DNA from: a virus
Taxonomy: Duplodnaviria; Caudoviricetes
Strand: one strand, 5' to 3'
Virus record (IMG/VR): IMGVR_UViG_3300028175_000001
Length of the DNA stretch: 64,000 nucleotides
In this document: positions 5,292 through 54,228 of the stretch, one piece after another
How the letters are laid out: the number at the start of each line of letters is the position of its first letter
How positions within the stretch are numbered: the stretch's first letter is position 1
Program-made: the position numbers and the translations under genes
The notes under the pieces: model-generated
Told to the model about the DNA's origin: nothing
Seen by the model: the letters and a program-made list of their open reading frames with translations, nothing else
Database searches by the model: none

Positions 5292-6104
5292 ATGATTACT
5301 CTTAACGAAGCATTTCATGCCTCTGATTACGAAACATGGTTAACATATTGGAGTCGATGCAAAGTCAATACAATTTTCCATAAATATCCAGATTATACAG
5401 CAGAAGATAATCCTGTATTAGTACGATTTAGAGAAATTCCCGATGGCGAAGATGTAGAAATACCTCATCCAGACATTGAAGTAAAACAAATCGAAACTCA
5501 TCTAGACACATATTGTTTCAAGACACTACTAAAAGCATTACCCGAAAATCACAGAAACAAAACTTTAGAGGGAATACAACTACAATCAGCAAATTTTCAT
5601 GACGCCATGGCTAAAAGAGAAAAAGATTTTGATGAATTTTTAGAATATAAACTAGCCGGTAATCTTAACATAGAAACTATTGATAACACAAAACCCATTT
5701 CATGGGAATCAATAAGAACTGCTTCAACAGAAGAATTGTTTCAAACAAAACTTGAAATATTTGAAACACAACCAGTTCAAGAAAGCGATAAAAAAGAATA
5801 TCGTTCTAATATTAGAAAAGCATCATCAATTATTGAAGCAATGCACTGGTACTATTTAATAGTCAATGATATTGAAATGTCCACGTCAGAAAAATCAGAA
5901 GAAAAAATTCCCGAAAATATAGATATACTACTTGCTGATATTTCTTCAGAAACACTATTTAAATATAAATTACAGCTTTTCGAAAAAGAAGAAATTCAAA
6001 ATAGCGAAAACAAAAAAGCTAGAAGCAAACTTAGAAAAGCAACTAATTTAATTGAACTATTTTCAGCTTATAATGAAGTGATATTATTAGATAAAAAAGA
6101 ATAA
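5292..6104 (+). CDS. Hypothetical phage protein with a duplicated ~55-aa C-terminal helical repeat
   Basis: TEELFQTKLEIFETQPVQESDKKEYRSNIRKASSIIE versus SETLFKYKLQLFEKEEIQNSENKKARSKLRKATNLIE; AAGGAA RBS upstream. Confidence 0.7.
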   Translation: MITLNEAFHASDYETWLTYWSRCKVNTIFHKYPDYTAEDNPVLVRFREIPDGEDVEIPHPDIEVKQIETHLDTYCFKTLLKALPENHRNKTLEGIQLQSANFHDAMAKREKDFDEFLEYKLAGNLNIETIDNTKPISWESIRTASTEELFQTKLEIFETQPVQESDKKEYRSNIRKASSIIEAMHWYYLIVNDIEMSTSEKSEEKIPENIDILLADISSETLFKYKLQLFEKEEIQNSENKKARSKLRKATNLIELFSAYNEVILLDKKE

Positions 6105-6733
6105 TCAATTTCTTCATTTTTAAAATGTACTATTTTAATATCATCATGAAACCCGTCCAAATAAACATATTCTCCTGGATACATTGCGTTTATTGAAGCA
6201 AGTTCTTTTAAATTTTTTTTATTACACATTCTAGTCACCCATGTTGATGGAAGATATTTCAATTTTAATTTTTTCTTTACTTGATCTTCTATGAAAAATT
6301 GTTCTCCATTAACTGGCCCTGTTGTTATTTTAAGGGTAATATAATATTGCGACCAATAATTAATATTGCCCATAAATTCATCATAAATGTATTTACAATC
6401 TTTCGGATAATACTTTTGAAATCCTCCGCATAATGAATAATTTTCATTCCAAGTATCTTTCCACCAAGATTTGGCTGTTAAAAATTCCCCTCTTTCTATA
6501 GGATAATCGATAGCTTTAGTGTAATCATTAATATAAAAAGTATCAATATCAATTACAAGAACCGGCTCATCAATATCCATATTCATGACTCGTAATTTAT
6601 TCCATTGTAAATCTACTCCAGGCAATTCATCTCTAATCCATGTAACATTCGATATTTTTGAATTAATATAATCTTCAACTCTTTGATCATATTTGTCACG
6701 TACTCTAACTGCAAATACTTTTGTTTTATTCAT
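6068..6733 (-). CDS. GT8-like (GT-A, DxD) phage glycosyltransferase
   Basis: KY..YI N-terminus, QWNKL, VLVIDID motif; paralogous to 9039 and 10829. Confidence 0.6.
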   Translation of the reverse strand: MNKTKVFAVRVRDKYDQRVEDYINSKISNVTWIRDELPGVDLQWNKLRVMNMDIDEPVLVIDIDTFYINDYTKAIDYPIERGEFLTAKSWWKDTWNENYSLCGGFQKYYPKDCKYIYDEFMGNINYWSQYYITLKITTGPVNGEQFFIEDQVKKKLKLKYLPSTWVTRMCNKKNLKELASINAMYPGEYVYLDGFHDDIKIVHFKNEEIDYSFLSNNITSL

Positions 6734-7602
6734 TCAGATTTTTTAATCATATTAAAATAATTATAAACAACACGTTCTCTTGCAACTTCTCTATATTCCC
6801 ATTCAATTTCGGGAATCCACAAACCAGCAGATGAAGCAGATTTTTCTAAAAACCAATGATGGTGATATAAAAAAATTTTTGGATCTTTATATTGTTTTTT
6901 AACTCTTTCAGTTCCAGCATATTCATTATCTCTAAATCCTTCACCGGGAATGTTTACGTTCAATAAAAATTCCCTATTCCAAATAGTCGGTTGATGACAT
7001 AACAAAAACCCCCCATCTTTTTTAGCCTTTAAAATTTTTTTATTTTGTATATAATGGTCTGTTTCTTCGTATTCATCTAAAACATAAGGAGAAGTAAGTC
7101 GGTGTAATCTCAAACCATTCACATCATTGAATCGTACAAAATTTAATAATTTATTAAATAATATTGCATCAATTTGCTTAAATGGCCACTGGTCTTCTTG
7201 CATGTATAAAACATATTTTGTTTGAACCGAGTTTAAAGCAGTTATAAGTCTATCACTCCATCCTTCATCAATCTGTTTTGGTCCCCCATAAGTAGGCAAC
7301 CAATCTCGTTCTTCGATTCCCATATATTTTTTACTTTTACCCGTTTTAATCTGAAGGATTCTAGGATCATTAAAGGGCAATTCTATTTCTTCATTACAAA
7401 AATATATAGGCCAATCTAAATCCAAAAATCCAAAATGATCAAACATAGTATACCAACCATCCCAAAAATGACTGTATTCATCACACGTATGAATTATAAC
7501 ACTAATATTATTGAGAGGGAGCATCGTTCCAAATATTACAAAGTAAAATACGTTCTTTTGTTTCTGGTTTAGTGAAATCATATTCTCTAAAGAATTTATC
7601 AT
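6730..7602 (-). CDS. GT-A fold nucleotide-sugar transferase-like protein (likely start 7524)
   Basis: ISVIIHTCDEY..WSDRLITALNSVQTKYVLYMQEDQW..HQPTIWNREFL. Confidence 0.55.
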   Translation of the reverse strand: MINSLENMISLNQKQKNVFYFVIFGTMLPLNNISVIIHTCDEYSHFWDGWYTMFDHFGFLDLDWPIYFCNEEIELPFNDPRILQIKTGKSKKYMGIEERDWLPTYGGPKQIDEGWSDRLITALNSVQTKYVLYMQEDQWPFKQIDAILFNKLLNFVRFNDVNGLRLHRLTSPYVLDEYEETDHYIQNKKILKAKKDGGFLLCHQPTIWNREFLLNVNIPGEGFRDNEYAGTERVKKQYKDPKIFLYHHHWFLEKSASSAGLWIPEIEWEYREVARERVVYNYFNMIKKSE

Positions 7603-8599
7603 TCACATAAATTGTTATATTTTCAAGATCATCTTCAGAAAAAAAATCTGTTCTGTAACCCCAATCAGCACAAGTAAAAGAAGAATAATGAACATTATTT
7701 CTAAAAATAGAACAATTTATTTCTCCTTTTGGGGGCATAGCAAAAAACCTATATCCCCGATTTGGTTCATACCAAGCAAGACAGATCCAGGGATATTCGG
7801 CATCAGTATAAATTTTTTGTTTTTCGAAACCCGTTCTTTGAACAGATGTTTCAAGATCTTTTATCTCAACATTTTCTTCAAAGGAATCTTCCTGCTTATT
7901 CAGGTAAGATATACCCAACACATAACCCAATAACTCTTCACCTATATGAAGACCATGATTAATCATCATCTGTTTAAGATGCTGATCAGAATACATACTC
8001 AATCTACGATATAAAAAATTTACATTACACGACATAATTAATGTCATAATCTGCCAATGTCTAATTTTATCCCCAACATAGTGTTCACCATCAGGCGCAT
8101 TTAAATCTTCTGTTTCACGTTTATAAAATACTGCTTGTTTTCCTTGAGTTTCTATAATATCATAATTTTCTATTAATTCGTCATCAAATGGCAAAAATCC
8201 ATCATAATCAAATAAATGGATTACTTTTTTATTAAGCAATTTCGCATATGTAACCCCTGCGAGTAATAATCGTAAAACTGCAAATATTGTATTATTTTTA
8301 AAAAATTCTCTACTTGCAATATTAAAAATAGGAGACACGTTACCTTCATCATCAAGTTCATAAGCATAATGAATTAAATATCCTTTCAATTCAGGATCAT
8401 CGACCAACATATTATCTTTATCATAAATTGCATAATCTACTAATTCCTGAGTGTCTTTGTCAAGAGGCAAATGACTCGTAATCAAAACATCATACCCAAA
8501 AGATTTAAACTGTTTTATAAATTTATGACATACAGACTTTCTTTCTTCATCAGACAAATAAGCATGTATCAAAATTATTTCATTTGTTTTGTCTATCAT
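7508..8599 (-). CDS. Hypothetical protein, possibly GT-A-like
   Basis: 363 aa ORF tightly packed in the operon; HLFDYDGFL DxD-like motif. Confidence 0.5.
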   Translation of the reverse strand: MIDKTNEIILIHAYLSDEERKSVCHKFIKQFKSFGYDVLITSHLPLDKDTQELVDYAIYDKDNMLVDDPELKGYLIHYAYELDDEGNVSPIFNIASREFFKNNTIFAVLRLLLAGVTYAKLLNKKVIHLFDYDGFLPFDDELIENYDIIETQGKQAVFYKRETEDLNAPDGEHYVGDKIRHWQIMTLIMSCNVNFLYRRLSMYSDQHLKQMMINHGLHIGEELLGYVLGISYLNKQEDSFEENVEIKDLETSVQRTGFEKQKIYTDAEYPWICLAWYEPNRGYRFFAMPPKGEINCSIFRNNVHYSSFTCADWGYRTDFFSEDDLENITIYVNDKFFREYDFTKPETKERILLCNIWNDAPSQ

Positions 8600-8604
8600 A
8601 TGTT

Positions 8605-9075
8605 TTAAATGTTATTTTGTTGCATTATCCACCCAACTAAAGAATATTTTATTCCTTTTAAAACAGGCTTTACTCTATGTTCTAATTTCGAATCAAACCT
8701 AAGACAATCTCCCACACTCAATTCTATGGAATCACTGTCTTTAATTTCAAAAGATCCTCCTCGATATTCAGCATTTAAAGGTATAACACATGTTTCTATT
8801 CTTTTACAAGTTGACCGAGCAGTATCAAAATCGTTATGCCAATGATAATAATTTAACTTAGAATATTCTGAAAACTGAAATACCATATTAGAACTATTAA
8901 ATTTTTTTTCCAATTCAAAATCATTTAACCAAATAAAAACCTTAGATCTTCTTTCATCAGAAAATTCACTATTTACAACTCTAGCAAAACGAACCTTTTT
9001 TCTACAAGATACGATAAGATCAAAACATTCTTCTTTTGTCAATAAGTTTCTAATAATCTGTATTTTTTTGTCCAT
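8605..9075 (-). CDS. 2OG-Fe(II) oxygenase (P4H/PKHD-like)
   Basis: HWHND (HxD), YRGGSF, FDSKLEHRVKPVLKGIKYSLVGW (distal His; the usual Arg position is Lys). Confidence 0.85.
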   Translation of the reverse strand: MDKKIQIIRNLLTKEECFDLIVSCRKKVRFARVVNSEFSDERRSKVFIWLNDFELEKKFNSSNMVFQFSEYSKLNYYHWHNDFDTARSTCKRIETCVIPLNAEYRGGSFEIKDSDSIELSVGDCLRFDSKLEHRVKPVLKGIKYSLVGWIMQQNNI

Positions 9076-9605
9076 TCTTCTGTTTTCATTGCAGGCGCAA
9101 AATCATGATTAAATAAACAAATTGAATGTTCCAATTCGTCTCTATTCCAAGGATAAGACCAACACACTTTATCATAAATTTTATAATCTATTTCTCTGTA
9201 AATATATTCATCGATGCCTTTCCAATATTTTACTCTGCTATAATCTTCATCTTCATAAAATTTATCATAAATATGAACATGATTTCCCTTCCACGACATT
9301 ATTGAAGAGTTTAAAGGGGTATGAAGCGAATCTCTCCACCAGGCAGTAAGAAGAGTAAAATCGTCTTTAATTAAATGAGATATGGGACCCTTAATAATTA
9401 TATCTAAATCGAAATATAAATAATTTACATCATTAACACATTCTTTAAACATTTGCAATTTATCAAAAACAGCACCTTCTCCATCTCTTATTATATAAAC
9501 GTTTTCATATTTCAATTTTCCATGTTCACGAATCATATGAAGAATATTATCAACATACCACTCATCATATTTATTTCCCGTACATACGAGAACAACGGTT
9601 ACCAT
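9039..9605 (-). CDS. GT8-like phage glycosyltransferase
   Basis: VVLVCTGNKYDEWYV..FDKLQMF..YLYFDLDIII..LNSSIMSW. Confidence 0.65.
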   Translation of the reverse strand: MVTVVLVCTGNKYDEWYVDNILHMIREHGKLKYENVYIIRDGEGAVFDKLQMFKECVNDVNYLYFDLDIIIKGPISHLIKDDFTLLTAWWRDSLHTPLNSSIMSWKGNHVHIYDKFYEDEDYSRVKYWKGIDEYIYREIDYKIYDKVCWSYPWNRDELEHSICLFNHDFAPAMKTEEWTKKYRLLETY

Positions 9606-10507
9606 TTCCCTATCACCATAAATCTGTCATATAACGGTAAGGAGCGTTTTCCTTTATATAAAACATCTTTAATTTGATTTTTTTCAACCAACTCATTAAC
9701 ATCTTTTACACAATTTATATGATCATCTAACTCAAAATAATTATTTGATTGTATTGCTATAGTAGGTTTTATTGGATAATCTTTATAGCAGTCTTTCATT
9801 AAAGCAATATCAGCCATATGTTCTGAAGAAGTGTTTATTATTAATTGCCGTCTTCTCAATTCTGTACGTTCAAAAAAATCTCCAAATTGTGCAATTTTAA
9901 ATTTTTCATCAAAGTGATTTTTATACTGTGCAAATATTTTATGACAATTTTCATCCAAATCATATAAATCAATTTGAGATATGTTGAAATTTTTCGACAA
10001 CATTTCAATTAATGGATATCCAAACCACGAACCGATTATATCAATATGAAGATCCCCCGAATATTGTATTTTTTTTAGTTCTTGAGAAAGCCACAATTTA
10101 GATTCATATTGACCTTGAGATACGGAATCATCAAAATTATTAGAATACGACGGCAGATTATTATTAACCCACTGATTAACCCAATAATATGGAGTTTCTC
10201 GATTATCATTTTCACACATAGAAATTTTTTCTTTATGTTCTCCAATAGTATCTCTAATCGAACCAATTTCTGTATTGTGTTCTCCAATAGTATCTCTAAT
10301 CGAACCAATTTCTGTATTGTGTTTTCCGATTTCTGTATTGTGTTCTCCAATAGTGTCTTTAATCAAACCAATTTGATCATTATAAGATCCTATTTCAATA
10401 TTATGAAGACTTATATCGTTTTTATTTTTTCGCCAATTATAAATTTGTTCCATATACACAATATTGTTTATATTTTTTATTTTTACATTGTATTTCGAAT
10501 GAATCAA
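9599..10507 (-). CDS. Class I SAM methyltransferase with an N-terminal heptad-repeat coiled coil (likely start 10453)
   Basis: SQGQYESKLWL..IDIIGSWFGYP..DLYDLD..INTSSEHM..QSNNYF..HINCV, preceded by IGEHNTE/IGSIRDT heptads. Confidence 0.75.
   Translation of the reverse strand: MIHSKYNVKIKNINNIVYMEQIYNWRKNKNDISLHNIEIGSYNDQIGLIKDTIGEHNTEIGKHNTEIGSIRDTIGEHNTEIGSIRDTIGEHKEKISMCENDNRETPYYWVNQWVNNNLPSYSNNFDDSVSQGQYESKLWLSQELKKIQYSGDLHIDIIGSWFGYPLIEMLSKNFNISQIDLYDLDENCHKIFAQYKNHFDEKFKIAQFGDFFERTELRRRQLIINTSSEHMADIALMKDCYKDYPIKPTIAIQSNNYFELDDHINCVKDVNELVEKNQIKDVLYKGKRSLPLYDRFMVIGKW
10236..10374. repeat. In-frame tandem repeat: two perfect 42-bp units plus 21-bp-based variants
   Basis: tgttctccaatagtatctctaatcgaaccaatttctgtattg at 10236-10277 and 10278-10319, a 21-bp variant at 10320-10340 and a diverged partial copy at 10341-10374. 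Confidence 0.95.
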
Positions 10508-10856
10508 AAACTTCTGTTAATTCATTATCATCGACCAGTTTATTAATCGAACAAATAGGATTACAATCACCATTATGTTCTTTATCATCACCTTTTAAAA
10601 TGAAAATTCCTTTATGCATTCGACCCACAGGATATGTTTTTTCACAATTATAATGTAATACACAAGTATGCAATTTAACATCATCAAACACAAAATCATT
10701 ACACCTAACATTTGACATATATCTAAAATTAATATCATAATTTATATTATCAATTTCCATATCCAATCCCCTCAAAGTCTTGATAAACTTAAAATTGGGA
10801 CAACATAATACAGATATTTTTTCGTGATTTACAGCCCAATAGAATAAGTTTTCCAT
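10437..10856 (-). CDS. Degenerate paralog of the adjacent methyltransferase C-terminal part
   Basis: HYNCEKTY..ILKGDDKEHNGDCNPICSINKLVDDNEL resembles NTSSEHM..IQSNNYFELDDHINCVKDVNELVEKNQI of 9599. Confidence 0.5.
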   Translation of the reverse strand: MENLFYWAVNHEKISVLCCPNFKFIKTLRGLDMEIDNINYDINFRYMSNVRCNDFVFDDVKLHTCVLHYNCEKTYPVGRMHKGIFILKGDDKEHNGDCNPICSINKLVDDNELTEVFDSFEIQCKNKKYKQYCVYGTNL

Positions 10857-11635
10857 AATTCCTGTACAGGTGATTCATGTAATTCATAGTGTTTGATATC
10901 TTTCATATTTTTATTATTGAAAAGATGAGATGTATTGAACAATGTCACTTTATTTTTTAATTGATATTGTTCTTTATTATAGTTTGAAAATAGGTCTTTT
11001 TCCCACAAATTCAATTTATTATTTCTATGATGCTGATAAAACAAATATTTGTCTAAACTTTTATATGTCCATTTTATCTTTTCCCAATTATTTTTAGTAT
11101 AAGTTAAAAGCCAAGAAGCTGTCCCTTTATCCCATGCAACAAATGATGAGTTTGTATGACAAGACACTCCGCGACCATAATTGAATAAACTAATTTTTTC
11201 ATAATCATTCCAATAGTTCCATATAAATGTAATATTATGATGTTTTCTTGTTATCAATTCGGTTATATCTTCATGAACCAATACATCTAAATCTATCCAA
11301 ATATTTTTATCATATTCGTCATTATCAATAAGAAATAATTTTTCATATGTAAAAACTCTCTTTGTATCATATGGCCTAAGTTCTTGTATATCCTTTGTTT
11401 CGATTCTAGAAGATATTCCTCTAGAATCATCAGTATAGCACACAAAATGAAATGGAACTCGACAATATTTCAACAATCCACCATACGTTCTATTAACATA
11501 ATCAAAATTATATTTTGTACCCCACTTGAGACAATTAATTTTAATCTTATTCATAGATAAACAATGGCTCCATTTTTTTGAACGACTCATCAGGATCATC
11601 ATATGGCACGTCTTTGACAAACCAAGATTTATCAA
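10829..11635 (-). CDS. GT8-like phage glycosyltransferase (likely start 11554)
   Basis: INCLKWGTKYNFDYVN..FVCYTDD..EKLFL..IWIDLDVLV..NSSFVAW. Confidence 0.7.
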   Translation of the reverse strand: MINLGLSKTCHMMILMSRSKKWSHCLSMNKIKINCLKWGTKYNFDYVNRTYGGLLKYCRVPFHFVCYTDDSRGISSRIETKDIQELRPYDTKRVFTYEKLFLIDNDEYDKNIWIDLDVLVHEDITELITRKHHNITFIWNYWNDYEKISLFNYGRGVSCHTNSSFVAWDKGTASWLLTYTKNNWEKIKWTYKSLDKYLFYQHHRNNKLNLWEKDLFSNYNKEQYQLKNKVTLFNTSHLFNNKNMKDIKHYELHESPVQELWKTYSIGL

Positions 11636-12380
11636 TTTTATTATACATTATAACATCATAAACTAATTGGGCAAACTTCATGTTTTGTTCTGATGTCATG
11701 TGATTTAATAAAAAAATATCACTGTTGGACGCTTGACCAACTATATGCCCAATGGGAATTTTCACATAATCAAAATTACTCGAATCCAAAGAATCAAATA
11801 TTAACGAATTCAATAATTTGGTAGAGGTTATATTAAAATTTTTATAATAACTTATATAATGATCTAAACTAAAACAAGTGAAAACTATAAATCTAATATT
11901 TTTAAAGTTGTTAGCTATTAATCGCAAAAAAGAAATATTTTTTACATTTTCATACAAAAACATTGGTCCTAAAGATTGTGCAATAATTTTAATTTCATTA
12001 CCAAGTTTTAAAATACTTTCGAAGTTCTGAGACGTGTTCCCCGCAACTTTTTTCATGAAATGAGCATCTCCCGCATAATCATCTTCTGCTATTTGAAAAA
12101 TACCATAAGCCGAATCATTTTTATTTTTCAAAAACGAAAAGTTTAGTCTTTTTTGATCTGACAAAGCCACAAATACTGTATCATGCGGTTTAATAAGTTC
12201 TTCTTCTAATTGAAAAACAAGTTTTGTTAAGGCATCATTGGGACCCGATCCGGCCTTCCCAAAACCCCGCACGTTTTCCTTTTTCAATACTGACAATCGA
12301 TGAGGCCAACAACATTTGTCTGTAACATTTTCACAAATACAAGCAAAACTATCTCCAAAAATATGAATTGTCATTTCCAC
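11547..12380 (-). CDS. SGNH/GDSL hydrolase-like protein (acyl esterase or transferase)
   Basis: IFGDSF block I, GKAGSGP block II, NHMT distal His; ends FIYE. Confidence 0.65.
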   Translation of the reverse strand: MEMTIHIFGDSFACICENVTDKCCWPHRLSVLKKENVRGFGKAGSGPNDALTKLVFQLEEELIKPHDTVFVALSDQKRLNFSFLKNKNDSAYGIFQIAEDDYAGDAHFMKKVAGNTSQNFESILKLGNEIKIIAQSLGPMFLYENVKNISFLRLIANNFKNIRFIVFTCFSLDHYISYYKNFNITSTKLLNSLIFDSLDSSNFDYVKIPIGHIVGQASNSDIFLLNHMTSEQNMKFAQLVYDVIMYNKIDKSWFVKDVPYDDPDESFKKMEPLFIYE

Positions 12381-13411
12381 TGATCTCCAAATGTATCAAA
12401 CCCTGTACCGCATTTTTCTGCACACACTATTGATTTTCCCTGTGAACAAGAACTCATATTCCAAGACTGTTCTATTTTTCTGAAAAAACTTCCTTCTATT
12501 ATTTCATTTAATGGTTTATATAAAGCATTAATGTTTTTAATATCATCTAGATAATACCATATCTGGTTCTGTCCTAATTGTTCATATAATTTATATAATT
12601 TTCCAGCAGTCCAACAACAGGGGGTAACCAATCCCTCTGCTGAAATATAAATTTCTCTTGACTTTAAAGATTTACATTCTATTCCAGTACTGTCTAAATA
12701 ATTTTGAAAAGTGCCGTGATAGTTAAGCAGTTTATCATATTCGTTTACACTTTTATTTTGATGTTCTTTTTTGATTGGAGGCTTAATTTCATTTCCTTTA
12801 ATAGTTGTTTTTTTGAATATTTTATCATCTTTATAGCTTTGAACCCATCTACCAGTTTTTTTCTTTATAAAATCAAGACCGAATAATTTAGCCATACGTT
12901 CTGCTTCTTCCACTTGATGCTCATTGTGTTCAAATATCAAAAACACCCAAACACCTTTTCCGCCTGCTTGCGTAAACACATCCATTGAATTTTCAACTCG
13001 GGCCCAATCAACATTTACTCGATATAAATGATTCGTATCATCCAAACCATCTACCGAAAAAGACACTCTACCGTGATGTCCAAAAATTCCTGCAAGTCTT
13101 TTCCACCAATCATCTGATCGTCCTCCAGCATTTGTAGTCATATGAAGATATAAGTCTTTATTATTATATCGCAACCATTCATATATGTCAAGGGAGTCTT
13201 TTGCCGCCAGGGGGTCTCCATGATTGCCACACATGAGAAAACTAGTCAATTGTTGTGCTAAACTAACATCGATAATTTGTTTAAATTGATCAATAGAAAT
13301 TTCAGCATTCTTTATGTGTGGATTATTGGTTCTATCACACATAGGACACATTGCTTGACATTTTTGTGTAGGCTCAAAATGTATATGTCTTATATCATTA
13401 AGTCTGTACAT
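12371..13411 (-). CDS. Radical SAM protein with C-terminal twitch/SPASM (subfamily A)
   Basis: CQAMCPMC; CGNHGDP; TNAG; FSVDGL; IFEHNEHQ; C-term CKS..ISAEGLVTPCC..CAEKC. Confidence 0.92.
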   Translation of the reverse strand: MYRLNDIRHIHFEPTQKCQAMCPMCDRTNNPHIKNAEISIDQFKQIIDVSLAQQLTSFLMCGNHGDPLAAKDSLDIYEWLRYNNKDLYLHMTTNAGGRSDDWWKRLAGIFGHHGRVSFSVDGLDDTNHLYRVNVDWARVENSMDVFTQAGGKGVWVFLIFEHNEHQVEEAERMAKLFGLDFIKKKTGRWVQSYKDDKIFKKTTIKGNEIKPPIKKEHQNKSVNEYDKLLNYHGTFQNYLDSTGIECKSLKSREIYISAEGLVTPCCWTAGKLYKLYEQLGQNQIWYYLDDIKNINALYKPLNEIIEGSFFRKIEQSWNMSSCSQGKSIVCAEKCGTGFDTFGDQWK

Positions 13412-14193
13412 AAATCTTTCGCTTTTTCTAAACAGCTATCAAATCTAGGAGAACTAAAGTGCCCCTGATTATTAATCTCTTCATTGATATCTATATTTGT
13501 GGTATGTGCTATAGTATCAATATTCATTGCTCTAGATAAATGAGTCCACATTCCTTCTGTAGCAAAAATAAAATCAGACATTTGTAATATTTCTACATTT
13601 CTAGAATAGTTAAAATCCTCTAAAGGAAAAAATGTTATTTCTGGAAACTTTCTAATCAAAAAGTCTATCTTCATTCTTTGTTTTTTAGTTACTATATCTT
13701 GATTTTTATCATACACCAGATAACAAACTTTTTTTCTTTTTTCTCTAATATCAAAATCAATAGGCCAATACGATCCATCAGTCCATATTTTATTGTACAG
13801 CATATTAAAAGTATTATTATAGTAATTACACCCTGTCGGAAGAGATATTTTTTTAAAATCTTTATCGTAAGTATTCTCGTAGGTATTTTCAATCATTACA
13901 TGAGCGTCTTGCCATGATATTTTTTTCTTTAAATGCACAGTTGTAATTTTATTTTTAGGTCTTTTAAACTGAAAAAAATCAATTATTTGATAAAAATCTT
14001 CACATAAAAGTTTCTTTGGCTTTGGATGAACGTCCAGTGATTCACACATATAAACGACACTATCACGTTCAAAATAATCCATTACACTTAGAAATGCAGA
14101 AACATATACGAACCTATCTCCAAGCCCCCCGTCATTCGGGACAAAATAAAAAGTTAAAGGATCAGACAAAGAGGATTTATGGAAAACATTCAT
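13390..14193 (-). CDS. Possible GT-B glycosyltransferase (fucosyltransferase/GT9-like)
   Basis: DGGLGDR N-terminal motif; FIFATEGMWTHLSRAMNIDT C-terminal pattern. Confidence 0.4.
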   Translation of the reverse strand: MNVFHKSSLSDPLTFYFVPNDGGLGDRFVYVSAFLSVMDYFERDSVVYMCESLDVHPKPKKLLCEDFYQIIDFFQFKRPKNKITTVHLKKKISWQDAHVMIENTYENTYDKDFKKISLPTGCNYYNNTFNMLYNKIWTDGSYWPIDFDIREKRKKVCYLVYDKNQDIVTKKQRMKIDFLIRKFPEITFFPLEDFNYSRNVEILQMSDFIFATEGMWTHLSRAMNIDTIAHTTNIDINEEINNQGHFSSPRFDSCLEKAKDLCTDLMI

Positions 14194-14371: not shown

Positions 14372-14387
14372 AATTTTCTAAAACAAT

Positions 14388-24362: not shown

Positions 24363-24376
24363 GTTATAATTAAATA

Positions 24377-43261: not shown

Positions 43262-43276
43262 ATTCTAACAATCCAT

Positions 43277-43999: not shown

Positions 44000-44023
44000 A
44001 TTTTAAACCACCAAAAAATAAAT

Positions 44024-45832: not shown

Positions 45833-46815
45833 TGAAATCCCCCTCCCAAAGTTCTAGAATGCCTCAAATACAATGGAATACTATCAATTCCATATTGACT
45901 CAATAGTTTTATCAAAGCTATTTGATTTCCATCAACAATAACTAAATCATTATTAACACTTAACAAATTAAGACCTATAGAATCACTTGATATTCCATAA
46001 TCTATAATATCAGTTGAAACAATATCACTAAAAAATATTTTTTCCCAATCTTTGAAAAATTTAGGATAATTGTCTTGATCACATCTTAATCCATTTAATA
46101 ATACAAGCCCCTCTCTTAATGGAATTACCGTACTATCAAAATGTGCGCCTGAATATGCATCACGTTCAATATGAATTTTATAATCAGGAAACATTCGTTG
46201 CAACCATTCTGCTCCTTTTTCGTTTCCACTATTGCTTATTTGAAAAATCAAATCATTATCAATCCTTACTACATTTGGTGCATCGAAAAGTATTTCTTTA
46301 TTCATTAATGTTGATTGTGATAAATCAGAAAAATCAAAACTTACGTCTTCAACAATTTGTTTTGGAGCGGAAAACCAATTTGTACCATCATCAAATGCTT
46401 CATGCAAAATTTTATTATAAGACCAAGTTTCAAACATCCTGCTTCTCATTACGCTAGGTACTTCAACAATATTATTACCCAAAACTAAAAAAATGTCTCT
46501 AGGACAATAATTATACCAACCAGTAGTTTTCCATTTTGGAGTCTGAATTAGATGACGATGTTGTATTTTTTCTGGCCTATGAACTATCACACCACAGTCT
46601 TCCAACACTTCAGATAAAATATCAAGATCTTCACTTGTCTCTTCAAGAACCTCTTGATCATATGGACCAACATATTTTTTTATTTCTTCAATTGTTAAAT
46701 TTGCATACATGAAATTTTTCATCGAAGAATCTACTGGAGGAATATGTGCAAAATCTGCACGTCCTACAATTATCTCATGAAGAGGATCATAATCATTAGT
46801 CGAGTGTATTAACAT
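45802..46815 (-). CDS. Amidinotransferase (glycine / inosamine-phosphate amidinotransferase family)
   Basis: YCPRD, FDAPN, SGN..G, HFDS, terminal GGGFHCVTLD with the catalytic Cys. Confidence 0.92.
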   Translation of the reverse strand: MLIHSTNDYDPLHEIIVGRADFAHIPPVDSSMKNFMYANLTIEEIKKYVGPYDQEVLEETSEDLDILSEVLEDCGVIVHRPEKIQHRHLIQTPKWKTTGWYNYCPRDIFLVLGNNIVEVPSVMRSRMFETWSYNKILHEAFDDGTNWFSAPKQIVEDVSFDFSDLSQSTLMNKEILFDAPNVVRIDNDLIFQISNSGNEKGAEWLQRMFPDYKIHIERDAYSGAHFDSTVIPLREGLVLLNGLRCDQDNYPKFFKDWEKIFFSDIVSTDIIDYGISSDSIGLNLLSVNNDLVIVDGNQIALIKLLSQYGIDSIPLYLRHSRTLGGGFHCVTLDLRRG

Positions 46816-48028
46816 AATTCTCTATTTCATCTTGAAAGACTTGATACTTATCATCATCGCAACCTCTAAATAATTTATAAGAAATATCACTACATATTTG
46901 ATAATTATGATTTAATTTATATTTAAGCGTACTTATAATACTCATTAGACCATTTAAATCCATTTGTAATATTTTTTCACACTCGATCATATACGCTTTT
47001 AATCTTTTTCCATATTGCCCAATACCATCAAACGAATAATCAAACAATTCATCATAAAGCACAAATCCGTGATCCGTTAAAAATTTATAATAATTCTTAG
47101 AAGCAAAGGTTAAAAATGGTTTTTTATAAAAAAAATTTTTGACTGTTTTTTCTGTAATATGTGTAGCACAATCTGTTTGAGTTTCACAAACAAAATTCAC
47201 CGCAGATTTCAAATATTCATCAGGAACAATATTATACAAATACCAAGGACAAGTCTGATATTCTTTTTCTAAATCCACATCGGAATAATCTGCGGAATAT
47301 TCTGTGTTTAAAGATCTATTCAACATAACACGGGCGGGATTTTTTAATTTTTTTAAATCTGGACTAAAATATATTTTTTTGGATGAGTTGAAATTATTAA
47401 AACCAAATAAGTAATTTAGTGAAGTTTCATCACCCGATATTTTATCAGTATTGTGCGTATGTGAACAATAATCATAATAAGAAATATTAAAACAATCATC
47501 AAGCAAATCATATTTAATAACTTTTCGGCGAGCCACTTGATCGATCATATCAATATAACCTAAATTCGAATATATAAAAGTATCATATTTACTCAATTCT
47601 GACATTATATAATCTCTACAAAATCTTCTTCCCCCAGATAAAAATATAGCATTGTGTTCTATACGAGGCTGAACATTATCTTTCAAAATATAAGTACCAA
47701 TTTCTCCAGGAAAAAAATATTCATAAACAAAAAACCAAGGAAATGAAACAATTTTTAAATTTAAACTTGATTTTACTGATTGTTTTACTTTTTCATAATT
47801 TTGCTTAAGATGAATATCCGCGCCGACAAATGTAATATTAAACGTGTCGTCAAATTCATTGAGTAAATGATAAAAAAGCGCCCTAGTATTTCGCTTATGA
47901 TATCCCCCCACGTTCAAATACGGGAACAAAGAATATGGTTCTGCATAATTATAAAGAATTACTGTTTTTTCAGCTCTTATTTCATTTAATATTTTTTTTG
48001 AAATATGCTCGCAGTGCAAAAATTTCAT
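46796..48028 (-). CDS. TEK..K...KPF family protein (putative GT-B-like)
   Basis: VCETQ..ITEKTVKNFFYKKPFL..GFVLYDELFDYSFD. Confidence 0.45.
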   Translation of the reverse strand: MKFLHCEHISKKILNEIRAEKTVILYNYAEPYSLFPYLNVGGYHKRNTRALFYHLLNEFDDTFNITFVGADIHLKQNYEKVKQSVKSSLNLKIVSFPWFFVYEYFFPGEIGTYILKDNVQPRIEHNAIFLSGGRRFCRDYIMSELSKYDTFIYSNLGYIDMIDQVARRKVIKYDLLDDCFNISYYDYCSHTHNTDKISGDETSLNYLFGFNNFNSSKKIYFSPDLKKLKNPARVMLNRSLNTEYSADYSDVDLEKEYQTCPWYLYNIVPDEYLKSAVNFVCETQTDCATHITEKTVKNFFYKKPFLTFASKNYYKFLTDHGFVLYDELFDYSFDGIGQYGKRLKAYMIECEKILQMDLNGLMSIISTLKYKLNHNYQICSDISYKLFRGCDDDKYQVFQDEIENYVNTLD

Positions 48029-48036
48029 CTAATCCC

Positions 48037-49239
48037 CTAAACAAACGCTTTTTGTTCATTTATCATAAATTTCAAATAGTTAAAATCATCTAATTCAGAA
48101 GCAATATACCATATTTGCTTCTGATTCGCCACATGAAAACAATTATACTGTATTTTTTCTCTAAATGTTTCTATTTTAGCAGTTAAGTGGTGAGTAGACA
48201 TAGCTAAAATTGGTTTTATCTGTTTCATAATAGAATCAAATCTTTGATCAAATGATTTATCATCGAATGAATAATCAAACAATTCTTCATATAGATAAAA
48301 CCCCGCTTTTTTCAAAAACTGATGCGAATTTCTTGCGCTTAATAATATAAAAGGTTTATTTAATGAAATAGGTTTAAAAGTTTTTTCTGTTAATGCAATG
48401 CTTTCATCAACATATGATTCTGTCACAAGGTCTATACAGCTCTGAATATATTCTAAAGGAACACATCTTTGAAAAGCATCATGCTTTGAAGCAAAAGTTT
48501 TTGATATATCTTTCTTTGATCGAAAATTTAGTGGAACTTCACTTTTTTTCATAAAAAGTAAGGGATCATATATTTCATTTAATTCTGTTAATTCATTTAA
48601 TAATTCATTATCTTCATCATTATCAAAAACATCTTCCATTTGTTGAGGATCTTCAAATGGATAATACGAATACATAAAATTTTCTATGCCACGCAGTGCT
48701 TTGATTGTTTTTATTCTCTGATGTTTTTTTGTACTGTTTAATGAAATAACATTATATTTTGGTTCATACTCTATTTTTTTATCATCAACAGTTAAACTAA
48801 AATTGTTAATATTAACGCATCCTATCTTCGCATTTGAATGGGGTAATTCAGTTTGCGAAGCACTGGAGGATTCAATCTCATAATCATTAAAAAAACCATA
48901 CATATAAGGATTAATTAATGGAATAATATCTGTTTTTATTTCATTACAAGAAATTATTTTTTTTAATCGGTTTAAATTAGACCATATGTTAAAATCTGAA
49001 GTGACATAATATACATTTTTATCTTTAAAATCCAGAGTTAAAATATTATATAAGGTATAATCATCAAACTCATCTAATGGAGCAAGTCTATCAGCTTCTG
49101 AATCAATGAAAATCACATTTTCGTCATCTGTTTGCAACACTTCATCTATAATTGTCTGATCAGCCGAAACACATTTCAATGTTTCTATAACATTTTGTAT
49201 CGGTACTGTATCAATACACTGGTCAACATGTATTCTCAT
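48037..49239 (-). CDS. TEK..K...KPF family protein (putative GT-B-like)
   Basis: VTESY..LTEKTFKPISLNKPFI..GFYLYEELFDYSFD. Confidence 0.45.
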   Translation of the reverse strand: MRIHVDQCIDTVPIQNVIETLKCVSADQTIIDEVLQTDDENVIFIDSEADRLAPLDEFDDYTLYNILTLDFKDKNVYYVTSDFNIWSNLNRLKKIISCNEIKTDIIPLINPYMYGFFNDYEIESSSASQTELPHSNAKIGCVNINNFSLTVDDKKIEYEPKYNVISLNSTKKHQRIKTIKALRGIENFMYSYYPFEDPQQMEDVFDNDEDNELLNELTELNEIYDPLLFMKKSEVPLNFRSKKDISKTFASKHDAFQRCVPLEYIQSCIDLVTESYVDESIALTEKTFKPISLNKPFILLSARNSHQFLKKAGFYLYEELFDYSFDDKSFDQRFDSIMKQIKPILAMSTHHLTAKIETFREKIQYNCFHVANQKQIWYIASELDDFNYLKFMINEQKAFV

Positions 49240-50414
49240 AATAAAAGTTTTTTTCCATAATGAATTATTTTTAGTGGGACAAGATGTTTATTGGTTTTAA
49301 ATTCTCTCCAGGGATCCACAACTATACTATCTTTATTAAAATTAAAATCATAATGACATCCTCTATGGGCAAGTAAATATGTGCATGGAACATCATTCAT
49401 ATTTTCATCAAAACCCAGTTCAAAATTCGACAATTCATTTACATAATATCCCACTAATAACGCATATGAACCATCAGTATAACTTATTTTTGGCTTAAAC
49501 GACTTTCCCAATATAACAATCGGTAATTTGAAACTCACTAATTTTTCAGCCAATCTCTTTGCTTGAACCTCTCTAGAAGTCATAATTGCATCAAATAAAT
49601 CATACCCTAAGTCTAATTTATTTACAAGAAATCTTAAAGCAATATTATCTCTGGGATGACAGGGACCACCATCTCCCATACCAGGCTTCATATATAATTT
49701 ACTTATAATCCTCTGTGATGAATTTGACAACGCATTAGCAACTACATCACAATCTACATTACCGTTTAGTTCTGCTACATCTTGTATCATATTAACTAAA
49801 CTAACTTTAGCAGATATAAACGTATTATAAAATATTTTAATACATTCTGCTTCATCTAGGGTAACCAATTCAAATCTAGTTTTTTTCTTCTGTAAAATTT
49901 TTATATAAAACATTTTAAGATCATAAACAATACTTTGAAGTACATTATTCGATCCCATTATAATCATTTCAGGATTCAGCATATCCCAAGTTGTTGTACC
50001 CATAGCAATCAAATATGGATTGTATATAAAATTCACTCCTTTTTTGATTATTGGCAAAAAGTCTTTTCTACAGGTTCCAGGTAAAACTGTACTAATTAAT
50101 ACAATAGTCTGACCCTCTCTAATATATTCGTTTATTTGAAGTAAAGCATTGATTACGAATTCATACTGAAAATCTTTGGGATCTAAATGCGAGGAAGGCT
50201 TGGTTCCATCATAATCTTCATGATGAGGAGTTTCAACCGCTAAAAATATAAAGTTGTTATATTGTATTGCATCTTTTATATTTTTATGAATAATAATTTT
50301 ATTGCTTTTTTTCTCACGCAAATCAAAACCATGCACACAAATATCATCTTGGGCCATTGCTTCTGCACATTCTAATCCTAATTTACCCAATCCTATAAAA
50401 CCAACATCAGTCAT
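49236..50414 (-). CDS. ugd: UDP-glucose/GDP-mannose 6-dehydrogenase family (start refined to ATG 50414)
   Basis: GFIGLGKLG; AVETP; STVLPG; YNPYLIAMG; ECIKIFYNTF; GGPCHPRD catalytic Cys; GKSFK. Confidence 0.9.
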   Translation of the reverse strand: MTDVGFIGLGKLGLECAEAMAQDDICVHGFDLREKKSNKIIIHKNIKDAIQYNNFIFLAVETPHHEDYDGTKPSSHLDPKDFQYEFVINALLQINEYIREGQTIVLISTVLPGTCRKDFLPIIKKGVNFIYNPYLIAMGTTTWDMLNPEMIIMGSNNVLQSIVYDLKMFYIKILQKKKTRFELVTLDEAECIKIFYNTFISAKVSLVNMIQDVAELNGNVDCDVVANALSNSSQRIISKLYMKPGMGDGGPCHPRDNIALRFLVNKLDLGYDLFDAIMTSREVQAKRLAEKLVSFKLPIVILGKSFKPKISYTDGSYALLVGYYVNELSNFELGFDENMNDVPCTYLLAHRGCHYDFNFNKDSIVVDPWREFKTNKHLVPLKIIHYGKKLLL

Positions 50415-50629
50415 AGATAAATTTTTCAAGTTTTTCTCCTTCGGTTTTATATAGATTTTTATGAAAGGTTTCAGTGAGAGTGGTATCGTAGAAAAAATTT
50501 GATAATTTATTAAGCAGAACATCTACTTTTATTTACAACTGGTTATTCTATCATATCAAACCACGCACGATAAAATAATGGATTACTCAGCTCATCGCCA
50601 TAACTATCTCCAAAAATATAAACGATCAT
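50407..50629 (-). pseudogene. Internally deleted fifth SGNH-like paralog
   Basis: ATG 50629 gives MIVYIFGDSYGDELSNPLFYRAWFDMIE* (stop 50545-50543). Another frame gives DVLLNKLSNFFYDTTLTETFHKNLYKTEGEKLEKFIYD* ending at 50407, matching the C-terminus of neighbours 50631 and 51404. Confidence 0.75.
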
Positions 50630-50630
50630 A

Positions 50631-52551: not shown

Positions 52552-52817
52552 TTATCTTTACATAAAGGGGGACAGTTATCACTATTCCAAACATCTTCAT
52601 TTAAAACCTCTTTAAATTGTTTTAAAATATTTTCTAACTTATTAGTTTTAAGCGAAGTATCAATATGAATTAATACAGTTTCATTTATAATTTTATCTAG
52701 ACCAATGCCTAGTTTATTTAAATAAAAAAAACAACATGGATATATATTCAGACCCAAATCTATTTCATATTGTTTCCATTGTTTTAACTCATAATTATAG
52801 AAATCACAGTTTATCAT
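52533..52817 (-). CDS. Stand-alone twitch/SPASM-like Fe-S domain
   Basis: NC..IDLGLNIYPCC..SLKTNKLENIL..CPPLCKDNC. Confidence 0.75.
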   Translation of the reverse strand: MINCDFYNYELKQWKQYEIDLGLNIYPCCFFYLNKLGIGLDKIINETVLIHIDTSLKTNKLENILKQFKEVLNEDVWNSDNCPPLCKDNCTWKE

Positions 52818-53509
52818 AGATTAACATAGTTACATTGATGATCTTTTACATCATATTTGTTTAAAATATTTTTCAATTTAATTAAATTTTTTTCTGTTAT
52901 TTTTAAACAATCTCTCTCATTAATTCTCACCTGCAATTTTATGTTTTTTTCTCTAGCTAATGCTATAACCTGTTCCACTTCTTGAAAATTATGATCAAAT
53001 ACTGTAAAATCCCATTTTGTAACACGTTGTTTGGCGGATTTAAACATATTAGCAAAAGCAAGACTGGTATTAACACCTATTCTATATAATTTATTTGTTT
53101 CATGTGTTAAACCATCAATAGCAAACACTAAAAATAACTTTTTATTTTTTTGTAAAAAAGAATTAATCCATTCGGGAGTTTTTAATCCACCATTCGTATA
53201 CAATTCTACTCGATCAAAAAAATTTGAAGCTGATATAACCAATTGATCTATTTTCGGATGCAGTAAAGGATCACCCAATTCTCCGCAAAACTTCGCAACA
53301 ATATTATCAGATAGTCTTATGTTTTTTAAATATTTTACATTTTCCCACAGAAAATTATCAAAATCATCTATTGACAAATGTTTTAATTTTAAATTTTTAT
53401 CAATAGTTCTAAAACAACTTGGGCATTTAGCATTACAATATGATGTTATTTCAAAATTAAATAAAATGAATCTTTGTGCTTTATATCCATCTACGTGTAC
53501 AACCTCCAT
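52814..53509 (-). CDS. Radical SAM core (subfamily A) lacking the C-terminal twitch
   Basis: EITSYCNAKCPSC; CGELGDP; TNGG; FAIDG; FDHN; stops after the barrel. Confidence 0.88.
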   Translation of the reverse strand: MEVVHVDGYKAQRFILFNFEITSYCNAKCPSCFRTIDKNLKLKHLSIDDFDNFLWENVKYLKNIRLSDNIVAKFCGELGDPLLHPKIDQLVISASNFFDRVELYTNGGLKTPEWINSFLQKNKKLFLVFAIDGLTHETNKLYRIGVNTSLAFANMFKSAKQRVTKWDFTVFDHNFQEVEQVIALAREKNIKLQVRINERDCLKITEKNLIKLKNILNKYDVKDHQCNYVNL

Positions 53510-54228
53510 TAATTACCCAGAGTAAGAGTGCTTACTCCCCCCTCATGTTTATGTTTTTCGTATAAATAGGTAGCCATACGTTTTCGCTTTTCGTTTATAA
53601 GAAATTTTGGTCTTTGATTAAATTTTAAATGAATAGTTATATTATTAGTTTTCGCAAACGACAATGCATCAGGAATTTCGAAAAAATTATGATTAAAAAT
53701 TAAAAATTGCCAATAAGTATTGACCCAACCGTTTTTTGTATTAGCAAAAGCGGCCATATTTGATAAAGCCCGTTCCGTCCTTACTCTTCTTCGATATATT
53801 TGATTAGTGTCATCTTTCATACCATCTATTGAAAAAATCATTTCTAAATTTTTATACCGTGTACCGAGTTCTTTATAAAAATCAGATTTTCTATTTCCAC
53901 CGTTTGTAACAATTTTTAAAGTTCCGAAAATAGAACATCCATAATCAATAAATTTCATAACTTGAGGATGAACCATAGCATCACCCAATTCCCCCTCAAA
54001 AGTAACCACATATCCTTTAAAATTATGCATGTTTTTCTCAATAACCTCCTTAAAATCCTCAAATTTTATATGTAATTGTCTTAAACTGGGATGTAATTTT
54101 TGATTTGGATCCACAGATGAATCCAGAGGAATAGGATCAGAATATGTTCCATATCTTTTACAAGAAGGACATGCCGCATTACAATAACTTGAAATTGAAA
54201 AATCATAAATAATATTTTTATTAATCAT
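53509..54228 (-). CDS. Radical SAM core (subfamily A) lacking the C-terminal twitch
   Basis: SISSYCNAACPSC; EGELGDA; TNGG; FSIDG; QFLIFNHN. Confidence 0.88.
   Translation of the reverse strand: MINKNIIYDFSISSYCNAACPSCKRYGTYSDPIPLDSSVDPNQKLHPSLRQLHIKFEDFKEVIEKNMHNFKGYVVTFEGELGDAMVHPQVMKFIDYGCSIFGTLKIVTNGGNRKSDFYKELGTRYKNLEMIFSIDGMKDDTNQIYRRRVRTERALSNMAAFANTKNGWVNTYWQFLIFNHNFFEIPDALSFAKTNNITIHLKFNQRPKFLINEKRKRMATYLYEKHKHEGGVSTLTLGN

Follow-up and report, generated by a model that had tools for sequence, protein, structure and literature searches.

A run of genes at positions 6068 to 54228 of a 64,000-nt stretch of phage DNA (IMG/VR record IMGVR_UViG_3300028175_000001; hereafter the window) encodes 18 intact radical S-adenosylmethionine (rSAM) enzymes, interspersed with glycosyltransferases (GTs) and other tailoring enzymes. 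We favor, with moderate confidence, the view that this island is devoted to glycan biosynthesis: unusual sugars would be made in the cytoplasm, tailored by radical chemistry and transferred to a soluble acceptor. The window is a composite of at least three separately mobile modules, lying roughly at <1-9 kb, 9-35 kb and 35-54 kb. These comprise a TibC-type O-heptosyltransferase/GT module, an rSAM core, and a module combining amidino- and carbamoyltransferase with a B12-binding rSAM enzyme and GT-B-fold GTs.

The modular make-up is apparent from IMG/VR relatives. Open reading frames (ORFs, named by their lower coordinate) 22929 and 21776 are retained at 77-90% identity, and the remaining gene content differs widely. 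Matches to rSAM enzymes occur in all five relatives examined, 12-15 in four of them and 4 in the fifth (G005). A complete 177-kb relative, G001, carries 13 genes in the same order adjoining the exonuclease and RNase H genes (22929, 25693, 21776, 20833, 16810, 15458, 19805, 14388, 12371, 10829, 10437, 9599 and 9039). There, the genes for the B12-rSAM, amidinotransferase, GT-B and SGNH-like proteins occupy 122-135 kb, about 100 kb from the rSAM core, and that for the carbamoyltransferase is found at 89 kb. G001 lacks the TibC-like GT, which relative G003 and 132 viral contigs possess together with the 887-aa GT, 6730, 7508 and sometimes 4315. Since relatives carry the modules separately, the single 48-kb assembly line envisaged in the original prediction is not supported, and, as G001 lacks the TibC module, protein priming of the TibC type is no general requirement of the rSAM module. 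The gene-content differences among close relatives fit selection for diverse glycan structures.

All 55 ORFs between 6068 and 54228 are on the minus strand, neighbors overlap or abut at 43 of the 54 junctions, and gaps of more than 30 nt occur just twice, which bears out the description of one co-oriented, mostly overlapping run. The window is AT-rich (27-39% GC) and nearly all of its coding sequence is on the same strand. Exactly one CxxxCxxC motif is found in each of 18 run proteins, the very ORFs named beforehand. Shuffling residues within the 55 island proteins yielded a mean of 0.22 motif-bearing proteins (maximum 3 in 1000 shuffles). All 18 match PF04055, 11 of them above the Pfam gathering score; the other seven pass NCBIfam NF033640 (N_Twi_rSAM, curated cut-off 170 bits) or are BLAST paralogs of passing members. 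Sorting by BLAST and NCBIfam gave a family A of six (12371, 16810, 20833, 28241, 52814 and 53509), with the motif near the N-terminus; the first four also have a SPASM/twitch domain at the C-terminus. Family B has nine members (15458, 17697, 19805, 22929, 26483, 29178, 32030, 33917 and the shortened 24987), characterized by NF033640 and an N-terminal twitch domain; tested at full length, seven ORFs exceed the cut-off with 174-390 bits. The remaining three are the singletons 14388 and 21776 and the B12-binding 44024. The rSAM genes and associated domains are as follows.

12371-13411 (-): family A with C-terminal SPASM/twitch, core member; PF04055 36.9 bits, dN/dS 0.15
14388-15461 (-): singleton, weakly viperin/MoaA-like, core member; PF04055 56.9 bits, dN/dS 0.12
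15458-16810 (-): family B, N-terminal twitch; NF033640 208.6 bits
16810-17748 (-): family A; PF04055 42.5 bits, paralog by BLAST
17697-18971 (-): family B; NF033640 263.8 bits
19805-20836 (-): family B; NF033640 211.6 bits
20833-21798 (-): family A with SPASM; PF04055 and PF13186, dN/dS 0.075
21776-22936 (-): singleton (15 Cys), conserved partner of 22929; PF04055 36.9 bits, 77-86% identity in relatives
22929-24362 (-): family B, the island's most conserved gene; NF033640 389.5 bits
24987-25700 (-): family B without the N-terminal twitch; NF033640 67.6 bits over model positions 97-357 (core only), paralog alignment
26483-27532 (-): family B; NF033640 160.6 bits, just below the cut-off, PF04055 31.2 bits
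28241-29185 (-): family A with SPASM; PF04055 45.2 bits, PF13186 28.6 bits
29178-30248 (-): family B; NF033640 184.2 bits
32030-33172 (-): family B; NF033640 173.8 bits
33917-35017 (-): family B; NF033640 177.3 bits
44024-45832 (-): B12-binding rSAM, KedN5-family C-methyltransferase-like; NF033712 206.7 bits (cut-off 700, not reached), PF04055, PF02310
52228-52817 (-): two free-standing Cys-rich twitch/SPASM-like domains of about 100 aa; hidden Markov model (HMM) of family-A C-terminal domains
52814-53509 and 53509-54228 (-): two family-A cores ending after the barrel; PF04055 38.1 and 18.2 bits, C-terminal domain missing from the alignment

The last two entries amount to a split architecture, in which the cores 53509 and 52814 are followed by the separate domain ORFs 52533 and 52228. 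Both of these match the HMM of the family-A C-terminal domains (E 9e-5 and 2.7e-6, respectively), with their PCC...C...C cysteines aligned. In family B, N-terminal profile positions 5-70 align to the C-terminal twitch of BtrN (residues 167-238), and the conserved N-terminal cysteines fall at the alignment positions of C17, C35/36, C99 and C102 of 22929. The latter protein has about 3000 homologs, mostly viral; a tblastn search among cultured phages returned three weak matches only. Its AlphaFold2 (AF2) model (predicted local distance difference test score, pLDDT, 87.6) agrees with solved rSAM cores and has ordinary members of the rSAM/SPASM group, namely SkfB, CteB, SuiB, viperin, MoaA, anSME, BlsE and DesII, as structural neighbors. 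Sequence searches of the PDB gave no match for 22929, and 14388 reached E 0.02 at best.

The DNA comes from a marine T4-like phage that is abundant and uncultured. Three island proteins recur in exact copy in 180-270 blocks of public assemblies; contigs of 50-200 kb (one of 204 kb) occur in more than 100 of these blocks, and 100% of the sampled words of a 10-kb piece occur in marine or seawater metagenomes from at least 10 studies (2012-2019). Recurrence in over 100 independent assemblies together with T4-type flanks identifies the contig as phage and excludes a chimeric assembly or a cellular locus, either of which would have undone the claim of a virus-encoded island. The genes to the right of the run are:

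54239-57377 (-): PD-(D/E)XK exonuclease 54239, Zn-ribbon protein, NTP_transferase 55201-55917, DUF6433 and T4 RNase H 56472-57377
58518-59504 (-): GT1-family glycosyltransferase beyond RNase H; PF00534 49 bits, ortholog in G001

The exonuclease is of phage type, and the RNase H shares 44-45% identity with its counterparts in Melnitz and T4-like cyanophages; among GenBank phages, the right flank had no megablast match. To the left, in a contig with the same genes, the run extends through two giant GT fusions to T4 gp33, gp59 and gp32 and then to baseplate genes. Direct attachment to T4-like core genes is thus confirmed on both sides, by 54239 and 56472 on the right and by genes beyond the window end on the left. 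As the leftward contig reaches gp33, the insertion measures some 60 kb and fills the slot between the late-transcription gene 33 and rnh, which are neighbors in T4 itself. Sugar-related genes exceed 6068-54228 on either side (GT fusions at 1-4224, NTP transferase 55201 and GT1 58518).

Nei-Gojobori dN/dS values against the closest relatives range between 0.08 and 0.29 for 30 island genes, 15 rSAM genes included (rough values, dS often exceeding 1); relaxed selection, with dN/dS near 1, is not seen. Contigs from four metatranscriptome runs (three studies) at ≥99% identity account for 26-30 of the 30 bins that span 12371-32370. Two RNA runs (X15 and X18) contain a contig in which 18343 and 20724 are connected by 24 other letters; its depth is 41 and 185, against 1-7 elsewhere. 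It has the appearance of a variant or relative, present alongside, that lacks 18968-19804 and most of 19805-20836; this would be cassette-level variation in the rSAM module. The T4 late-promoter box TATAAATA is not enriched in the window (13 found, 18 expected) and precedes none of the island genes. Sigma-70-like sites are not enriched either (121 versus 121) and strong ones are confined to 61-64 kb, so that the timing of expression cannot be deduced from them. Between 60000 and 64000, on the minus strand, small ORFs are accompanied by strong sigma-70-like promoters that have no equal elsewhere in the right half (63871-63843, 12/12; 61387-61359, 11/12 with TG; and 61879-61851). All three are directed at the island, with no convincing terminator on the way, and early or middle transcription may read through into it.

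At least eight glycosyltransferase domains are present in the region. Those outside the right flank, with the genes that accompany them, are listed below.

1-1574 (-): N-terminal 524 aa of a 1139-aa GT2-GT4-TibC-like fusion, remainder beyond the window start; Pfam GT2
1561-4224 (-): 887-aa GT1 + FkbM methyltransferase fusion; PF00534, PF05050
4315-6104 (+): two opposite-strand genes, one for a 321-aa Ser/Thr/Gly/Pro-rich protein (4315-5280) and one for a 270-aa acidic protein; tandem TATAAATA boxes upstream
6068-9075 (-): TibC-module accessory genes 6068 (DxD, GT-A-like by motif only), 6730 and 7508 (no assignment) and 8605, a 2-oxoglutarate (2OG)-Fe(II) oxygenase by Pfam
38022-39131 (-): GT-B-fold glycosyltransferase paralog; BLAST paralog of 46796 and 48037
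46796-49239 (-): two GT-B-fold glycosyltransferase paralogs, 46796-48028 and 48037-49239; AF2 fold of 48037, BLAST paralogy

The full 1139-aa fusion is encoded at L016:12651-16070. Its residues 789-1131 (343 aa) match TibC (4rap; E 8e-66, 229 bits) over TibC residues 40-386, nearly full length. All four iron-finger cysteines, Cys339, 342, 358 and 370 in the numbering of PMC4358343, are conserved in the phage protein. The C-terminus of the fusion is therefore predicted to be a TibC-like (BAHT) protein O-heptosyltransferase domain; enzymes of this family transfer heptose from ADP-heptose to Ser of a beta-helical protein. Of 80 viral loci, 29 pair the 887-aa GT1-FkbM fusion with the TibC-like GT; 6730 and 7508 are found with TibC-like GTs in 16 and 17 viral loci, and a 4315 homolog is next to such GTs in 10. 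The only plus-strand gene pair of the region is preceded by two T4-late-promoter-like TATAAATA boxes that overlap each other at 4249-4262 (+), 53-66 nt ahead of 4315. The 4315-5280 product may be a late, perhaps structural, protein and, by its position, might speculatively be the glycan acceptor. The pair has no family match, and 4315, 5292, 6068, 6730 and 7508 found none in PHROGs.

TibC-like domains of 33-42% identity were also observed in the cultured cyanophage Microcystis phage Mel-JY01 (7378-8427, annotated as FkbM methyltransferase) and in the uncultured 636-735-kb phages LR756501/03/04. Judging by these sequences, protein O-heptosylation may be widespread in phages; the literature yielded no description of a phage TibC.

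PDB sequence searches gave no match for the 887-aa GT or for 46796, and 48037 has no HMM match. The AF2 model of 48037 (pLDDT 85.6) superimposes on many GT-B chains with Z 9-10.6 over 250-270 residues; on this model, 48037 and its paralogs 46796 and 38022 are classed as GT-B-fold glycosyltransferases. The T4 beta-glucosyltransferase ranks first in Foldseek (E 3e-4) and the T4 alpha-glucosyltransferase by VIA (Z 10.6), with GT4 enzymes at Z 9-10, tied within 1 Z. Three small proteins (6068, 9039 and 10829) carry a DxD motif and are GT-A-like by this motif alone.

The tailoring and accessory genes are the following.

9039-12380 (-): tail of the conserved core module (9039, 9599, 10437, 10829 and 11547), syntenic in G001
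18968-19804 (-): short protein, weakly pyridoxal phosphate (PLP)-fold-like, paralog of 42386-43261; NCBIfam transaminase segment E 5.6e-6, BLAST paralogy
24377-24994 (-): nitroreductase-family flavoprotein; PF00881, 42% paralog of 39143-39826
25693-26493 (-): QueC-like PP-loop ATP pyrophosphatase; PF06508 26.4 bits, SGGADS at residue 61, CGKCWWC at residue 240
35528-36475 (-): truncated ANL adenylating enzyme; PF00501 45 bits
36486-37742 (-): Trp-halogenase-family flavoprotein; PF04820 207 bits, FAD motif GGSTAG
39143-39826 (-): nitroreductase-family flavoprotein; PF00881
39856-40617 (-): possible PhyH/2OG oxygenase (weak); TIGR04324 'sporadic carbohydrate cluster 2OG-Fe(II) oxygenase' E 1e-5, below cut-off
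40617-41981 (-): NodU/CmcH/TobZ-type carbamoyltransferase; PF16861 163 bits, PF02543 99 bits
43277-43999 (-): 2OG-Fe(II) oxygenase; PF13640 46 bits
45802-46815 (-): amidinotransferase; StrB1 (1bwd) E 1.8e-84 over residues 3-336, full length
49236-50522 (-): UDP-glucose/GDP-mannose dehydrogenase family; PF00984, PF03721
50631-52231 (-): two SGNH/GDSL-like paralogs; FGDSF block, paralogy with 11547, no HMM match

The tailoring toolkit originally proposed holds for the amidino- and carbamoyltransferases, the dehydrogenase, the halogenase-family, QueC-like and (truncated) ANL proteins, and the nitroreductases, 2OG oxygenases, SGNH-like proteins and GTs. It is weak for PLP enzymes (18968 and 42386) and for the methyltransferase. 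The Pfam match of 25693 is restricted to its C-terminus at 26 bits, so that orthology to QueC is not claimed; likewise, as 36486 lacks WxWxIP, the motif by which halogenases differ from monooxygenases, it is filed as a halogenase-family flavoprotein only. In the amidinotransferase an HC motif lies 12 residues from the C-terminus, aligned by eye to the catalytic Cys. FGDSF marks SGNH-like N-termini in four proteins, including 11547, 50631 and 51404, on motif evidence alone. ORF 10437 encodes a 139-aa protein with 9 Cys, and NCBIfam models gave sub-threshold hints only on 20 unannotated ORFs. The 9599 protein combines N-terminal repeats with a C-terminus that appears class-I-methyltransferase-like (a weak language-model lead, 0.87). 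In its first 100 aa, ahead of this domain, the gene (9599-10507) specifies about six degenerate tandem repeats resembling IGxxxDTIGEHNTE. The repeat weakly matches the family TigB of precursors of peptides made by ribosomes and modified after translation (RiPPs; E 7e-4), and the Bdellovibrio homologs (241 aa) lack it.

An alignment of 22929 orthologs was used to look for counterparts in cells; run against prokaryotes at one genome for each species, it returned 70 loci. A few of these, at 55-87% identity, are in marine metagenome-assembled genomes (MAGs) of unrelated phyla and keep the phage gene order. Six such loci (L027-L032, labeled Chloroflexota, Acidimicrobiaceae, Verrucomicrobiales, Rickettsiales, Gammaproteobacteria and Planctomycetota), on contigs of up to 161 kb bearing the phage rSAM module, are most likely phage contigs binned into bacterial genomes. 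About 60 loci, 47-53% identical to 22929, belong to Bdellovibrionales, Bacteriovoracaceae and Halobacteriovoraceae and include the isolate Bdellovibrio sp. HCB2-146 and megabase chromosomes; single matches occur in Parcubacteria and Dojkabacteria. In about 50 of the 60 Bdellovibrionota loci the 22929 homolog lies within a few kb of homologs of 14388, 12371 and 9599. Identities in cellular loci are 52-61% for 14388 (about 49 loci), 34-43% for 12371 (about 50 loci) and 25-33% for the C-terminal domain of 9599 (at least 29 Bdellovibrionota loci). Homologs of 18968 are present as well, alongside further rSAM genes of families A and B (median 6 rSAM genes per 21 kb, up to 12). Stored annotations of three loci gave the following gene content.

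Bdellovibrio sp. HCB2-146: 4 rSAM genes, five GT2, GNAT; a protein with seven transmembrane (TM) segments
Halobacteriovoraceae: 6 rSAM genes, four GT2, QueC-like gene, amine oxidase; 9-TM protein
Parcubacteria L100 (MAG, 1.27-Mb contig, 825389-846771): 12 rSAM genes in 21 kb, aminotransferase, YrdC-like, GT1, AsnB-like, GT28; no membrane protein found

The multi-rSAM and GT architecture is thus not peculiar to phages, and the cluster periphery varies among cellular loci as it does among phages. In L100, from a bacterium of the candidate phyla radiation (CPR), the density of rSAM genes equals that of the phage island. In the HCB2-146 locus (L097) a 1959-aa protein with a Peptidase_S74 chaperone domain, of the fiber or tailspike type (17278-21377), adjoins the rSAM-GT cluster; a link to fibers drawn from this gene was dropped, as it stands beside none of the other Bdellovibrionota loci. 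In a tree of 22929 homologs the viral clade adjoins a marine Bacteriovoracaceae/Halobacteriovoraceae branch. A single Bdellovibrionota clade is not rejected by an approximately unbiased (AU) test (p 0.074), and hence no donor or direction of transfer is claimed. The literature held no description that we could find of Bdellovibrio rSAM clusters or of the N-terminal-twitch family.

More tentatively, and at less than even odds, 22929, 14388 and 12371 with the methyltransferase-like 9599 may be the conserved heart of an unrecognized rSAM route to hyper-modified sugars, whose product variable rSAM and GT paralogs diversify. This route would be common to marine T4-like phages, predatory Bdellovibrionota and at least one CPR bacterium, and its sugar chemistry would be new for rSAM enzymes. 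As all three live by attaching to other cells, the glycans may decorate attachment or surface structures.

The rSAM enzymes are read as sugar-tailoring because GTs and sugar-modifying enzymes are their constant companions in phages and cells and because they carry a BtrN-type auxiliary domain. Action on a sugar, aminocyclitol or nucleotide-sugar is thus suggested by gene context, the sequence and fold neighbors being mixed. In the scheme we propose, the NTP transferase and dehydrogenase would provide activated sugars. The twitch/SPASM rSAM enzymes would then abstract hydrogens from sugar C-H bonds to epimerize, oxidize, dehydrate, deaminate or decarboxylate them, in the manner of BtrN, NeoN, AprD4, DesII and BlsE. 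Other tailoring enzymes would attach guanidino, carbamoyl, methyl, acyl and perhaps amidine groups, and the GTs would build the product in the cytoplasm on a soluble acceptor. The acceptor would most likely be a phage protein primed by the TibC-like O-heptosyltransferase; use of the product in synthesis of a host surface glycan is less likely. Each of the 55 island proteins has one hydrophobic segment at most, and the island therefore encodes no flippase, polymerase, transporter or priming transferase. This all-soluble proteome and the intact TibC-like domain favor cytoplasmic glycosylation of phage proteins. The heavily decorated product foreseen in the original prediction gains support for a virion-protein target and loses it for phage DNA, as G001 is without ThyA-type hydroxymethylase and TGT/DpdA. 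A search for a characterized pathway with such an architecture found none, in agreement with the earlier statement.

Several observations weigh against this scheme. About half of the ORFs have no family assignment. The usual NDP-sugar 4,6-dehydratase, SDR and DegT enzymes were not detected in the island. The rSAM proteins are too distant from characterized enzymes for assignment of reactions, and the nearest structures to 22929 are mostly peptide maturases (SkfB, CteB and SuiB) along with viperin and MoaA. The GT-B model ranks T4 DNA glucosyltransferases first, albeit tied with GT4 enzymes; G001 keeps the rSAM core without the TibC module; and coverage in RNA libraries could represent carried-over DNA.

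The strongest competitor, which we judge to have an appreciable if clearly lesser chance of being right, shares the sugar chemistry and differs in the acceptor alone. Here, modified nucleotide-sugars would be placed on lipid-linked intermediates of the host, whose own flippase and polymerase would export an altered O-antigen or capsule that blocks superinfection or re-adsorption to debris. The Bdellovibrionota counterparts are accompanied by 7-9-TM proteins typical of surface-polysaccharide loci, and the same role has been proposed for GT and lipopolysaccharide (LPS) genes and for rSAM cassettes in the hypervariable islands of pelagimyophages (PMC7029224); persistence of the rSAM core in G001 without the TibC-like GT also agrees with it. 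However, some 60 kb of sequence lack multi-pass membrane proteins of any kind as well as a priming phosphoglycosyltransferase, a flippase and a polymerase, an intact protein-directed transferase is present, and a lytic phage would presumably leave little time for surface turnover.

It is improbable that the amidino- and carbamoyltransferases, the B12-rSAM, GT-B and halogenase-like part and some of the rSAM enzymes make a free secondary metabolite, a molecule resembling aminoglycoside or nucleoside antibiotics and directed, for example, against competitors or host functions. The amidinotransferase is closest to StrB1 of streptomycin synthesis and is joined by a TobZ/NodU-type carbamoyltransferase and a KedN5/GenK-type B12-rSAM, and a similar trio in cyanophage S-SCSM2R was interpreted as 'antibiotic synthesis genes' (PMC12801897). 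Yet no cyclitol synthase, exporter or resistance gene was recognized in the window annotation, the same enzyme classes decorate surface glycans too, and the module stands among GTs.

Slightly less credible still is maturation of a protein or RiPP, with SPASM/twitch rSAM enzymes cross-linking or epimerizing residues of a phage protein or peptide, aided by the nitroreductase-family, ANL, PP-loop and halogenase-like enzymes. SkfB, CteB, SuiB and YydG do figure among the structural and profile neighbors. On the other hand, neither a precursor-like small ORF nor a match to a RiPP recognition element (RRE) was seen among the island ORFs (an absent match being no exclusion), family B is extended N-terminally by a twitch domain with Cys rather than by a PqqD-like RRE, and the cellular homologs are embedded among GTs, not peptides.

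Hypermodification of DNA, in which the GTs and tailoring enzymes would decorate a modified base with a complex glycan, is very improbable despite the T4 glucosyltransferases that head the 48037 matches, the position of the island among replication genes and the precedent of phage DNA glycans and of rSAM enzymes in thymidine hypermodification (PMC8989533; bioRxiv 2023.12.21.572611), for the T4 matches are tied with many GT4 enzymes, G001 has ThyX with no ThyA-family hydroxymethylase or TGT/DpdA found, and homologous clusters lie in bacterial chromosomes beside membrane proteins (a Tet_JBP search gave no match, uninformatively, its control being blank too).

Phage islands of sugar genes were already known, and rSAM-rich T4-like genomes had been mentioned only in passing. 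Unexplained before was why an abundant ocean phage keeps 18 oxygen-sensitive iron-sulfur enzymes under purifying selection. What is new is the division of the island into modules, the identification of a conserved core and its location in the cultivable Bdellovibrio sp. HCB2-146, a genetic system for finding the product. If sugar tailoring is correct, several thousand mostly viral proteins would join carbohydrate enzymology, and glycan diversification would be a major investment of marine phages.

Among known systems, BtrN, NeoN, AprD4, DesII and BlsE share with the island enzymes an rSAM core, a Cys-ligated auxiliary-cluster domain and a setting among sugar genes, and BlsE and DesII are among the fold neighbors of the 22929 model. 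However, their auxiliary domain is C-terminal and that of family B is N-terminal, the similarity is marginal (E 1e-6 or worse), and their pathways have one or two rSAM enzymes against 18 here. The amidino- and carbamoyltransferases are strong full-length matches to StrB1 and to TobZ/NodU; compared with streptomycin-type clusters, no aminocyclitol-forming enzyme was found here and the context is rich in GTs. The likeness to the TibC/Aah heptosyltransferases (4rap; PMC4358343) extends over the 343-aa C-terminal domain with its four iron-finger Cys, whereas the phage domain is fused behind GT2 and GT4, is phage-encoded and has no autotransporter substrate present. A report of 2017 mentions a T4-like marine environmental viral genome that has 12 rSAM genes (PMC5332604), and one of 2020 mentions rSAM cassettes in pelagimyophage islands, the hypervariable 'host recognition cluster' of pelagimyophages and cyanomyophages (PMC7029224). 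These phages resemble ours in being marine and T4-like, with variable islands of GTs, LPS-type sugar genes and rSAM cassettes; the pelagimyophage island lies between vrlC and gp14, the present one between gene 33 and rnh. Both papers give the subject one or two sentences without analysis, and neither the link to Bdellovibrionota and CPR nor the modular make-up is described there. The virion glycosylation of mycobacteriophages employs phage-encoded GTs and sugar-synthesis enzymes for cytoplasmic glycosylation of structural proteins, as the present machinery would. Chloroviruses and mimiviruses have glycan gene clusters and virus-encoded glycosylation. We know of no virus glycosylation machinery, in mycobacteriophages, chloroviruses or mimiviruses, that relies on rSAM enzymes. 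The island is probably a new, rSAM-dominated variant of virus-encoded glycan machinery.

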